A stretch of DNA of 64,000 bases from Shigella phage sb1, in sequence record PQ666539; one strand, written 5' to 3'. Shown piece by piece: positions 56,383 to 60,499 of this stretch. Every line of letters begins with the position of its first letter. The stretch's first letter is position 1. Below the pieces are notes generated by a model. It ran no database searches and was not told the origin of the DNA. It saw nothing but the letters and a program-made list of their open reading frames with translations. A program made the translations under genes and the position numbers.

Positions 56383-59300
56383 ATGGCTACTTTAAAACAA
56401 ATACAATTTAAAAGAAGCAAAACTGCAGGTCAACGTCCTGCTGCTTCAGTATTAGCCGAAGGTGAATTGGCTATAAACTTAAAAGACCGTGTACTTTTTA
56501 CTAAAGATGACCAAGGAAATATTATTGATCTGGGTTTTGCTAAAGGCGGTAGCATTGACGGGAATGTTATTCATATAGGAAACTATAATCACACTGTTGA
56601 TTATACTTTAAATGGCACCTTCACTCAGACAGGTAATTTTAATTTAATCGGTATTGCTCGAGTAACTCGCGATATTATTGCCGCCGGGCAGATTATGACC
56701 GAAGGCGGAGAACTTATTACAAAAAGTTCAGGTACATCACATGTTCGTTTTTTCGATAGCAATAGCCGCGAACGCGGAATCATTTATTCACCGGCTAATG
56801 ATGGATTAACTACACAAGTACTTAATATCAGAGTTCAAGACTACGCCGCTGGTAGCGAAAGCACTTATGCATTTTCAGGCAATGGCCTATTTACTTCACC
56901 TGAAGTATCAGCATGGAAATCTATGTCAACTCCTCAGATTTTGACCAACAAAGTCATTACTAATAATAAATCTACAGGTGATTATGACATTTATTCGATG
57001 GCAGATAATGTTCCACTGTCTGAAAGCACTACTGCTATTAATCATCTCCGTGTCATGCGTAATGCAGTCGGTTCTGGCATTTTCCATGAAGTTAAAGATA
57101 ATGATGGAATAACTTGGTACAGCGGAGATGGGCTAGACGCTTATCTTTGGTCATTTACATGGAGCGGCGGAATTAAATCGAGTCACTCAATTTCTATCGG
57201 TTTAACACCTGGCAATAAAGATTATTCAATACTAGGACCATCTAGTATTGCTTTAGGGGATAATGATACTGGATTTAAATGGCATCAGGATGGATATTAT
57301 TTCAGCGTCAATAATGGAACGAAAACATTTTTATTTAGTCCTAGCGAAACAACTAGCCTAAGAAAATTTGTAGCTGGATATTCTACTAACGGAACCGATT
57401 TAACTACTCCTCCTACTGAAAACTATGCTCTCGCTACTGTCGTGACATATCACGATAATAACGAGTTTGGAGATGGTCAGACTCTTTTAGGATATTATCA
57501 AGGTGGTAGATATCATCATTATTTCCGCGGTAAGGGTACTACAAACATTAATACTCACGGCGTTTTGTTAGTTACTCCTGGTAATATTGACTTTTTTGGC
57601 GGCTTAATTAATATTAATGGTAGAAATAATGCTTCGACATTACTATTTAGAGCTAACACAACTGGTAGTAGCTCTGTTGATAATATGAACATACGCGTTT
57701 GGGGCGATACGTTTACTAATCCTAGTGTAGGTAATCGTAAAAATGTCATGGAAATTTCTGACGCAACTAGTTGGATGAGCTATATTCAAAGACTTACTAC
57801 TGGTGAAGTAGAAATGAACGTCAATGGTTCATTTGAATCATCCGGTGTTATTGCTGGAAATAGAGGAGTTCATACAACAGGCGAAATTTCATCTGGAGCG
57901 GTGAATGCGCTTCGCATTTGGAACGATGACTATGGTGCTATTTTCCGTCGTTCAGAAAACAGTCTTCATATTATTCCGACTGCTTACGGTGAAGGTAAAA
58001 ATGGAAATATCGGTCCACTTCGCCCGTTCCGTATGCCTTTAGATACAGGTAAAGTAAGTATTCCTAATATGGATTTGAGTCATACTACTTTTGATGAAAA
58101 TGGTTCTATTAAATTTACTAGTCACGGAGCAGGCGCTGGCGGTTATGATATTCAGTATGTTCAAGCAGCTCCTATTTTCCAGGAAATTGATGATGACGCT
58201 GTAAGCAAATATTATCCTATTGTTAAACAGAAGTTTCTAAACGGTAAATCCGTTTGGTCTTTAGGTACTGAAATTAGTTCAGGTACATTCGTTATTCATC
58301 ATCTGAAAGAAGATGGTTCACAAGGCCATACGTCTCGTTTTAATCAAGACGGTACTGTTAACTTCCCAGATAACGTTCTGGTCGGCGGCGGTGAAGCTGC
58401 TATTGCTCGTAATGGTAATATTTTCTCGGATATTTGGAAAACGTTTACTTCAGCAGGAGACATTACAAATATTCGCGATGAAATAGCTACCCGTGTTGCT
58501 AAAGAAGGCGATACGATGACCGGTAAGTTGACTTTATCTGCTGGAAATGATGCCCTTGTTTTAACTGCAGGCGCGGGTGCTTCATCGCACATCAGTAGTG
58601 ATGTAGGTGGTACAGGTAACTGGTATATAGGCAAAGGCGGCGGCGACAATGGTCTAGGTTTTTATAGTTACATTACACAAGGCGGTGTATACATAACAAA
58701 TAATGGCGAAATATCGCTTTCTCCTCAAGGTCAAGGAACATTTAATTTTAATAGAGACCGCCTTCATATAAACGGTACACAATGGGTTGCGCATAAATCT
58801 GGCGCCTGGGGTGACCAATGGGGTTTAGAAGCTCCTATATTTGTAGATTTTGGATACGTCAGCAATGACTGCTATTATCCTATTATTAAAGGAAAATCTG
58901 GTATTACTAACGAAGGATATTTTTCCGGCGTAGATTTTGGTATGCGTCGTATCACTAATAACTGGGCGCAAGGTATTATTCGTGTAGGTAACCAGGAAAA
59001 CGGTTCTGACCCACAAGCTATATATGAATTCCACTCTAATGGTACTTTTTATGCCCCGAGCTTACTTAAGAGCAACAGAGTATCGGCTGGTGGTGGTGAC
59101 CCGGTATGGGGTGGGCCGTGTATTGTTATTGGTGATAATGATACCGGATTAGTTCATGGTGGTGACGGCCGAATCAATATGGTTGCCAATGGTATACATA
59201 TTGCAAACTGGGGCGCAGGCTATCAATCTCATCCTGGGCTTTGGGATTCAACCGGTGCTTTTTGGACAGAAGTTGGAAGAGCTATCGTTTCTCATGGGCA

Positions 59301-59691
59301 TCTCGTTCAGGCAAATGATAGTTATTCAACGTTTGTCCGTGATGTTTATGTCCGTTCTGATATTCGCGTTAAAAAAGACCTCGTTAATTTTGAAAATGCT
59401 TCTCAGAAGCTTTCTAAAATTAACGGTTACACTTATATGCAGAAGCGAGGCCTGGATGAGGAAGGTAATCAGAAATGGGAACCTAACGCCGGTTTAATTG
59501 CTCAAGAAGTTCAAGCTATTTTACCAGAATTAGTTGAAGGTGACCCTGATGGTGAAGCTTTACTTCGTTTGAACTATAACGGTGTAATTGGTTTAAATAC
59601 AGCTGCAATCAATGAGCATACTACAGAAATTGCAGAACTTAAATCAGAAATCGAAGAACTTAAAGCATTAATTAAATCATTGTTAAAATAA
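56383..59691 (+). CDS. 37: long tail fibre distal subunit gp37 with C-terminal intramolecular-chaperone-like extension (T2-type)
   Basis: intact 1102 aa ORF; N-terminus matches gp37; C-terminal ~120 aa resemble self-cleaving chaperone domains. Confidence 0.85.
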
Positions 59692-59722
59692 TAAGAGGGG
59701 CTTCAGCCCCTTGGAGGTTTAT

Positions 59723-60499
59723 ATGGCAGTAACAGGACCGTGGGTAGGATCGTCTGCAGTAGTTAATACAGGACAAAATTGGATGGGTGGCGCGGCCCAA
59801 CGATTAAGAATGGGTGTTCCGTTTTGGATGAGTAATATGATAGGTCGATCTGTTGAAGTAATTCATACGCTTGGAGCAGACCATAACTTCAATGGTCAAT
59901 GGTTCCGAGATAGATGTTTTGAGGCAGGTAGTACACCTATAGTGTTTAATATCACTGGAGATTTAGTATCATATTCTAAAGATGTTCCTTTATTCTTCAT
60001 GTACGGAGATACACCGAATGAATATGTTCAGTTGAACATACACGGTGTAACGATGTATGTTCGTGGTGGGAATGGTTGGGCCGCTGGTGCAATTGGAGCA
60101 TCTGATGGCGGTGTATGTATCCAGAATGATATAGGTGGACGTCTGCGAATTAATAATGGCGGAGCTATTGCTGGCGGCGGTGGCGGCGGTGGCTATTCAC
60201 AAGCCAACAACTGGGCGGGAAAATATGTTTGTGGTGGCGGCGGCGGTCGTCCATTCGGCTTAGGCGGAAATAATGGTGCTCGATGGCCTGGTGGTAATGC
60301 TAGTTTGACGTCTCCGGGTGCTGGCGGTAATACTGGTACAGGGTATTATGCAGGTGGAGGTGGTGAAGTTGGTCAGCCAGGACAATATGCTAATCCAGGT
60401 GCTGGTTATTCAACACCTCCGACAAGTCCTGGCGCTGCTGTAGCAGGATCAGCTCCAACATGGCAAAACGTTGGAGCAATATATGGTCCAAGAGTATAA
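59723..60499 (+). CDS. 38: receptor-recognising adhesin gp38 (T2-type, Gly-rich motifs)
   Basis: ORF 59711..60499; ATG at 59723 gives [11 protein letters not shown]...; poly-Gly blocks typical of T2/T6-type gp38. Confidence 0.85.

Follow-up and report, generated by a model that had tools for sequence, protein, structure and literature searches.

Described counterparts of genes 37 and 38 of Shigella phage sb1 (sequence record PQ666539), which lie at positions 56383–60499 of the 64,000-nucleotide stretch analyzed here (hereafter the window), are found in the phages T2, S16 and PP01. Knowledge of the T2-type arrangement, in which a gp37 fibre subunit with a C-terminal chaperone is joined by a gp38 adhesin, goes back to the 1980s, with crystal structures now available from S16 and PP01. 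The gp37 proteins of T2 and T6 undergo proteolytic processing and subsequently receive gp38 as a cap (PMC3157838). The S16 gp37 ends in an autocleaved intramolecular chaperone of 113 residues, whose cut within DLNVS^SDRRIKK (the caret marks the cut) bares the surface on which gp38 docks, with the N-terminal tryptophans of gp38 plugging into the gp37 tip (PMC7917993). The gp38 of PP01 binds OmpC of E. coli O157, its loops D and E touching loops 5 and 7 of OmpC-O157 (PMC12892980).

The sb1 locus was identified with high confidence as the receptor-recognition module at the distal end of the long tail fibre, from a Tequatrovirus of the pSs-1/AR1/PP01 lineage, with chaperone self-cleavage, gp38 capping and an OmpC-type receptor predicted from homologues. 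All family-defining features accessible to sequence comparison are present in gp37 and gp38. Nothing contradicted the identification of the module, and the system itself is already known, with structures solved in relatives that are about 97% (gp38 receptor-binding domain, RBD) and about 56% (chaperone domain) identical. The whole window aligns end to end with positions 100968–164998 of the pSs-1 record (NC_025829) at 95.7% nucleotide identity, genes 34 to t being collinear, and megablast of positions 56383–60499 gave 100% coverage, with identities of 95.1% to Shigella phage sb3, 95.0% to pSs-1 and 88–94% to AR1, PE37, EC121 and PP01. The group of pSs-1, sb3/sb4 and Ec_YwIITB1 is correspondingly similar in its proteins, with a gp37 of 1102 residues at 95.4% amino acid identity and a gp38 at 94–97%. 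PP01 shares with sb1 the DVYVR^SDIRVKK motif, the 111-residue chaperone, the 36-37-38-t gene order, the intergenic hairpin and a nearly identical gp38 RBD, and differs in the length and shaft of gp37, in several N-terminal residues of gp38 and in features private to sb1, namely G113V, A71T and a run of seven instead of eight glycines.

The gp37 precursor and its C-terminal chaperone domain

Gene 37 (56383–59691, plus strand) was read from the six-frame list of open reading frames (ORFs) as the precursor of the distal long-tail-fibre subunit, 1102 residues long as in pSs-1 and without an internal stop, and PHROG 1699 ('long tail fiber protein distal subunit') covers its full length with an E value of 0. 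The ORF coordinates, the gp37 length and the C-terminal protein sequence given by a first-pass annotation, made from the DNA letters, were all recovered in this list. Its amino acid identity amounts to 95.4% with pSs-1 and sb3, 84% with the 1109-residue gp37 of PP01 and only about 30–33% with the 1341-residue gp37 of T2.

The last 111 residues (residues 992–1102; 59356–59688, plus strand) constitute the C-terminal chaperone or self-cleaving domain and belong to Pfam PF13884 Peptidase_S74, the 'chaperone of endosialidase' family. At residues 992–1051 the profile scored 47.1 bits, where the cut-off is 22 (E = 2.9e-12), over profile positions 1–57 of 58 and beginning exactly at S992. A C-terminal segment of the self-cleaving chaperone type had been proposed in the first-pass annotation, and both the Peptidase_S74 match and the similarity to solved intramolecular-chaperone domains bear this out, although the segment measures 111 residues and not about 120. 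When residues 910–1102 were compared with the PDB, the S16 gp37 tip construct 6F45_A was matched with an E value of 1.5e-43, and the sb1 cleavage motif stood opposite VSSDRRIKKD. The domain carries a serine at its N-terminal boundary and a lysine at +5 (S-x4-K; S992-D-I-R-V-K997), which align to SDRRIK of S16, to SDERHK of the GA-1 domain 3GUD and to ADLRAK of the MYRF construct, whose deposited chain carries alanine. The DVYVR^SDIRVK motif together with a domain of 111 residues also occurs in pSs-1, sb3, KNP5 and PP01, and the T2 equivalent reads NVYIR^SDIRLK with a domain of 99 residues.

More distant relationships were recovered with a chaperone-domain profile that was built from four sequences (sb1, PP01, T2 and S16) and searched against the PDB. 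It matched the auto-processing domain of the eukaryotic protein MYRF (7DC3) with an E value of 2e-10, the tail fibre 8JOV with 5e-5 and the chaperone domain released from the GA-1 neck appendage (3GUD) with 0.008, the chain of 3GUD starting at the serine opposite S992 and holding a lysine at +5. With the endosialidase-type tailspikes, GA-1 and MYRF, gp37 shares the serine as first residue of the (in sb1, predicted) released domain, the lysine at +5, the core motif AG(L/V)IAQE and the placement of the domain at the very end of a trimeric fibre protein, whereas the similarity is otherwise distant (profile E values of 2e-10 to 8e-3) and the passenger domains are unrelated. The last ~110 residues of gp37 have counterparts at the very C-terminal end of over 15 PHROG tail-fibre families that otherwise differ, as is expected of a portable chaperone module.

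By these alignments, S992 would be the putative nucleophile and K997 the putative general base, with a predicted cut between R991 and S992 in the motif DVYVR^S992DIRVK997; the predicted products are a mature fibre of 991 residues and a released chaperone of 111 residues (S992–K1102), the latter ending in a heptad-like, probably coiled-coil helix. In the proposed sequence of events, gp37 would be produced as a precursor of 1102 residues, of which the 111 residues S992–K1102 would act as an intramolecular chaperone, nucleating trimerisation and the folding of the fibre from its C-terminal end; after folding, the chaperone would cut itself off between R991 and S992 by means of the Ser992/Lys997 dyad, and the cut would bare a flat trimeric tip with the DVYVR end. 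The architecture predicted for sb1 is that of S16 (6F45), in which the gp37 tip is trimeric, the C-terminal chaperone is released by autocleavage and gp38 is monomeric, whereas the chaperone of S16 is about 56% identical to that of sb1, has 113 residues and is cut at DLNVS^S. With T2, sb1 would have in common a processed gp37 capped by a glycine-rich gp38, and it shares the SDIR(V/L)K motif.

Upstream of the predicted cut, the distal tip of the mature gp37 (residues 910–991, ending in DVYVR; 59110–59355, plus strand) was delimited by alignment to the S16 gp37 tip (6F45_A), and its DVYVR strand is unchanged in pSs-1 and PP01. From its role in S16 (PMC7917993), this tip may be the docking platform for the N-terminal domain of gp38. 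Within the shaft, residues 450–549 (57730–58029, plus strand) form a domain homologous to the trimerization domain of gp34 (Pfam PF21446 Gp34_trimer, E = 4.7e-8), and the PDB search matched residues 417–561 to the gp34 structures 4UXE/5NXF (E = 1e-11).

The shaft region at 57550–58550 (residues ~390–720) shows at most 89% nucleotide identity to any record of the phage collection, with flanks at about 95–99% to relatives. The substitutions private to sb1 in this region, as called from a six-genome alignment of positions 40000–64000 (24 kb), are mostly synonymous, and the region therefore has the appearance of having diverged naturally as a mosaic, or of having been acquired by recombination with a donor not yet sampled. 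This natural mosaic divergence in the gp37 shaft is the only sequence novelty of the module. That residues 390–720 of the shaft confer a secondary specificity (for example for lipopolysaccharide) which the relatives lack was given very little credence.

The gp38 adhesin and its predicted receptor

The gp38 ORF in the mechanical list (59711–60499, 262 residues) opens at a TTG codon at 59711. This TTG sits inside the intergenic hairpin, the ATG at 59723 is preceded by a GGAGG Shine-Dalgarno sequence (59713–59717, plus strand, 5 nucleotides before the ATG, read directly from the sequence), and the same ATG is annotated as the start in relatives, so gene 38 was taken to begin at 59723 and to encode an adhesin of 258 residues (59723–60499, plus strand). 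Two Pfam families, Gp38_N and GP38, divide the protein between them. The N-terminal attachment domain (residues 1–40; 59723–59842, plus strand) matches PF21721 Gp38_N with 75.2 bits against a cut-off of 25 (E = 3.8e-21) over profile positions 1–40 of 40, and the tryptophans W7, W20 and W35 are invariant in sb1, PP01, pSs-1, T2 and S16. The RBD (residues 41–258 plus the stop codon; 59843–60499, plus strand) matches PF05268 GP38 with 235.3 bits against a cut-off of 25 (E = 9.2e-70) over profile positions 1–218 of 218, and consists of a beta-helix followed by a polyglycine-II sandwich made of glycine-rich motifs. PHROG 2056 ('tail fiber protein; host specificity') is likewise matched by gp38 (E = 5e-107). 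Among solved structures, residues 37–258 match the PP01 gp38 RBD, crystallized as an sfGFP fusion (9V85), with an E value of 1.3e-138 and about 97% identity, and gp38 matches S16 gp38 (6F45_D) with an E value of 2.7e-51. The description of gp38 as a poly-Gly adhesin of the T2 type, and not as a T4-type chaperone, is accordingly upheld by these families and crystals.

Glycine makes up 31.5% of residues 110–258, with runs of seven, five and four glycines, and the glycine-rich motifs coincide in every alignment column with those of PP01, T2 and S16, the conserved C-terminal motif being present. Two exceptions were observed, a private G113V (codon 60059–60061) in the first motif and a run of seven glycines where relatives have eight. 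An exact match to the gp38 protein was not found on record, and a 41-mer across G113V was found neither in IMG/VR nor in the GTDB genomes. In its tryptophan-bearing N-terminal attachment domain and polyglycine-II sandwich gp38 resembles that of S16, the cleavage motif and the tryptophans being conserved in sb1, whereas its loops differ from those of S16. The glycine-rich motifs, the C-terminal WQNVG.IYG.RV and a UUCG hairpin are conserved with T2, whose gp38 is nevertheless only 49% identical and has different hypervariable loops; the receptors of the two adhesins are expected to differ because these loops differ.

Comparison of the hypervariable segments with adhesins of known receptor, which had been proposed as a check of the first-pass annotation, gave a clear result, as each of the five receptor loops has exactly the sequence found in PP01, whose receptor is O157 OmpC. 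These are, all on the plus strand, loop A (WAAGAI, residues 119–124, 60077–60094; PP01 W119–I124), loop B (residues 160–169, 60200–60229; PP01 Q161–V170), loop C (NNGARW, residues 183–188, 60269–60286; PP01 N184–W189), loop D (NTGTGY, residues 203–208, 60329–60346; PP01 N204–Y209) and loop E (NPGAGYS, residues 224–230, 60392–60412; PP01 N225–S231). Loop E reads NPGSGYS in pSs-1, sb3 and Ec_YwIITB1, in contrast to NPGAGYS in sb1. In PP01, G208 of loop D cross-links to OmpC loop 5, and loop E is the main specificity loop, A228 and the conformation around Y230 being essential for infection through OmpC-O157 (PMC12892980).

From this complete loop identity with PP01 gp38, OmpC of the E. coli O157 / Shigella type is the most likely receptor of sb1; sb1 gp38 is a T2-type adhesin of the PP01/AR1 subtype, with OmpC as the best receptor prediction. 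In the last steps of the proposed mechanism, the N-terminal domain of a single 258-residue gp38 would attach it to the gp37 tip by means of W7, W20 and W35, so that one gp38 would cap three gp37 chains (3:1) by analogy with the S16, T2 and PP01 work, and gp38 would then offer its five loops, held on the polyglycine-II sandwich of glycine-rich motifs, to the outer-membrane receptor of the host, most likely the OmpC named above.

A different porin (OmpA, OmpF, FadL or Tsx), as used by other T2-type adhesins, is an unlikely but not negligible alternative for the receptor. Several receptors are in use across the gp38 adhesin family (PMC12032242), and in Ox2-type adhesins one loop substitution can switch specificity (PMC12892980). 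The five sb1 loops are nevertheless all those of PP01, within an RBD that is about 97% identical overall, and the private gp38 changes A71T and G113V fall outside the loops, whereas the gp38 of T2 differs in its loops and is identical at only 49% of positions.

G:C>T:A lesions in the module and across the window

In comparison with pSs-1, in which all counterpart genes are intact, the 64-kb window contains 28 in-frame stops made by substitution, and 27 of the 28 arose by G>T or C>A. Genes carrying stops include 22, 23, 27, 29, 34–36, 48 and 51 and the early genes 32, nrdA, alc, rnlA and uvsY, with lesions, for example, at 5097, 5367, 6672, 16664, 17689, 18130, 18952, 20739, 38253, 38439, 39295, 43454–43459, 48267, 51772, 51841, 52702, 54211, 55164 and 56285. 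With early genes hit too, the lesions are not peculiar to the late genes. Relative to pSs-1, gene 34 holds four in-frame TAA codons and a start changed from ATG to CTG (50662–50664; an A>C change outside the G:C>T:A class), and genes 35 and 36 hold one in-frame TAA each. As written, the sb1 genome is non-viable.

Differential patterns were observed for the classes of private substitution. In the six-genome alignment sb1 has 367 private substitutions, 110 of them (30%) C>A/G>T, a class that makes up 8–11% of the private substitutions of pSs-1, Ec_YwIITB1, sb3 and KNP5 and 24% of those of sb4. Within codons, the private C>A/G>T changes of sb1 are distributed evenly over the three positions (33/35/23); 69 are missense, 9 nonsense and 13 synonymous (86% non-synonymous), whereas the other private changes, with 144 synonymous against 79 missense (65% synonymous), retain the mark of purifying selection. 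Changes in the two directions are balanced (214 C>A, 220 G>T), and no enriched sequence context was found around the changed C>A/G>T sites. These features suggest guanine-oxidation-type technical noise in a low-quality consensus as the simplest reading, and the lesions are most likely sequencing or assembly errors laid over a normal, naturally diverged Tequatrovirus genome.

In the related deposits, gene 37 of sb4 (PQ666542) is in three pieces and its nrdA, td and motA are split, and in sb3 (PQ666541) gene 34 and nrdB are split; split essential genes in both, together with the transversion-rich spectrum of sb4, suggest similar data-quality problems in this group of deposits. At codons 124–125 of nrdA (43454–43459, minus strand) two adjacent GAA codons both read TAA, and as two G>T hits 3 nucleotides apart are unexpected at about 1.3% per site, the error process may be locally clustered. 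Three small hypothetical genes, at 30895–31261, 35669–35798 and 10094–10278 (minus strand), differ from their pSs-1 equivalents gp218, gp230 and gp192 by net frameshifts of +1, −2 and −1 nucleotide, respectively.

Other explanations of the stops were tried and rejected. Reassignment of the stop codon or a suppressor tRNA is at odds with the genuine stops of genes 35, 36, 37 and t, which are also TAA; no tRNA genes are present in the window to provide a suppressor; and the stops belong to a random class that also gave the 69 missense changes in 24 kb, which argues against reassignment. Systematic miscalling at modified cytosines in a fixed context was discarded as the C>A sites have no context motif.

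The module and the neighbouring gene t were hit at similar density. Private C>A/G>T changes number 14 in gp37 (12 missense), 2 in gp38 (1 missense) and 5 in t (4 missense), the last being the holin changes E56D, R104L, P105T and R212I. The chance that no stop falls in genes 37, 38 and t together, computed from how many hits each gene received and what share of its G:C sites could yield a stop, is about 0.28 x 0.87 x 0.46 = 0.11. The nonsense-free genes 37, 38 and t beside the broken genes 34–36 are hence a chance outcome of random G:C>T:A noise and not biological sparing. The idea in the first-pass annotation that the module escaped the lesions consequently holds for nonsense codons, though not for missense changes, which all three genes carry, and the absence of stops is what chance allows; in the same way the holin described as intact is full length and yet bears four private G:C>T:A missense changes.

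Several points limit the reading of the locus as a working self-cleaving, OmpC-directed module. The radical private changes of gp37, such as G72V, A361E, G394V, A515D, A571D and A700E, the G113V of gp38 at a glycine invariant in nine adhesins including those of T2 and S16, and the deletion of one glycine from the run of eight in gp38 might each impair function if real. A single-sequence AlphaFold2 model of gp37 residues 960–1102 reached a mean predicted local distance difference test score (pLDDT) of 52, which is too poor to confirm the fold. The presumed autocleavage of gp37 and the presumed use of OmpC are both carried over from homologues, and as the pSs-1-like relatives infect Shigella, the loops by themselves do not give the exact OmpC allele or host range.

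If the G:C>T:A changes were real, the module could be a decaying, non-functional copy in a defunct genome, with gp37, gp38 and t on the way to becoming pseudogenes, a reading that we consider very improbable. It would account for the stops in the essential genes 22, 23, 27, 29, 32, 34–36, 48 and 51, for G113V at an invariant glycine of gp38 and for a C>A/G>T class without sign of selection. Only this single class is unselected, however, the others keeping their synonymous third-position bias (144 vs 79), whereas relaxed selection would touch every class; natural decay is normally dominated by transitions; the symmetry of 214 C>A and 220 G>T without context suggests a library or consensus error of the guanine-oxidation type; ORFs are likewise split in the nearest records, sb3 and sb4, and C>A/G>T accounts for 24% of the private substitutions of sb4; and a dormant genomic state in which decay could proceed is not known in lytic T-even phages. 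Equally improbable are real changes that became fixed while the phage was propagated under extreme mutagenesis of the oxidative or mutY/mutM type, or that arose in a relic no longer replicating. If they were real, the combination of a gp37 bearing about 12 radical shaft changes with a gp38 in which residue 113 is valine and the poly-Gly run is shortened would be a natural test of how much the polyglycine-II scaffold tolerates. Sequencing or assembly error remains the preferred account of the lesions.

Gene order, transcription signals and host range

The genes of the sb1 window follow the order 34-35-36-37-38-t-asiA...motA, and the 36-37-38-t order, with gene 38 directly after gene 37 and before t, is the same in the sb1 window, pSs-1, PP01 and T2. 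A T4-type arrangement, in which the C-terminus of gp37 would be a receptor-binding needle and gp38 an assembly chaperone absent from the virion, was considered since T4 is the archetype and has genes 37 and 38 at the same map positions, but it found no support and is ruled out by the family assignments, as gp38 matches PF05268, PF21721 and the adhesin crystals 9V85 and 6F45_D and no tail-fibre assembly chaperone family in Pfam (E ≤ 0.01) or PHROGs (E ≤ 1e-5), no T4 gp37 needle-domain entry was among the PDB matches of full-length gp37 at E ≤ 0.01, and the gp37 C-terminus is an S74 chaperone domain. Next to the adhesin module and outside it lies the full-length holin gene t (60530–61186, plus strand; 218 residues; Pfam Phage_holin_T, E = 1.2e-111). 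Small ORFs within or antisense to gene 37, such as 59156–59497 (plus strand) and 58344–58649 (minus strand), were taken as chance, having no supporting evidence, and NCBIfam gave no family match for gp37 or gp38.

T4-type late promoter boxes of the sequence TATAAATA were observed 23 times in the window against 9.4 expected by chance. One stands at 50620–50627, just upstream of gene 34, and another at 55687–55694 (plus strand), 24 nucleotides upstream of gene 36; the latter is the nearest late promoter box upstream of genes 36-37-38 and, from what is known of T4, presumably their promoter. A scan of 55600–61600 for sigma-70 promoters gave counts at background, and no Rfam RNA family was found in the window. 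Between genes 37 and 38 lies a GC-rich hairpin, GAGGGGC-UUCA-GCCCCUU (59695–59712, plus strand), with a folding energy of −13.2 kcal/mol and a z-score of only −1.2. It is conserved in pSs-1, PP01, Ec_YwIITB1, KNP5 and T2 with a C(UUCG)G tetraloop, the loop UUCA of sb1 being a private G>A change, and it resembles the intercistronic CUUCGG hairpins of T4 type, with mRNA stability or the coupling of translation as candidate functions.

For users of the record, the apparent pseudogenes of sb1 most likely reflect genome-wide G:C>T:A errors of sequencing or assembly, and the intact-looking tail-fibre genes carry the same errors as missense changes, so that caution is advised for uses such as the engineering of receptor-binding proteins. 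The diagnosis of a single-class, unselected G:C>T:A artefact that reaches into apparently intact fibre genes is the more useful by-product of the analysis. The practical value of the module itself lies in the prediction of host range, since sb1 is expected to adsorb through OmpC, like PP01 and AR1.

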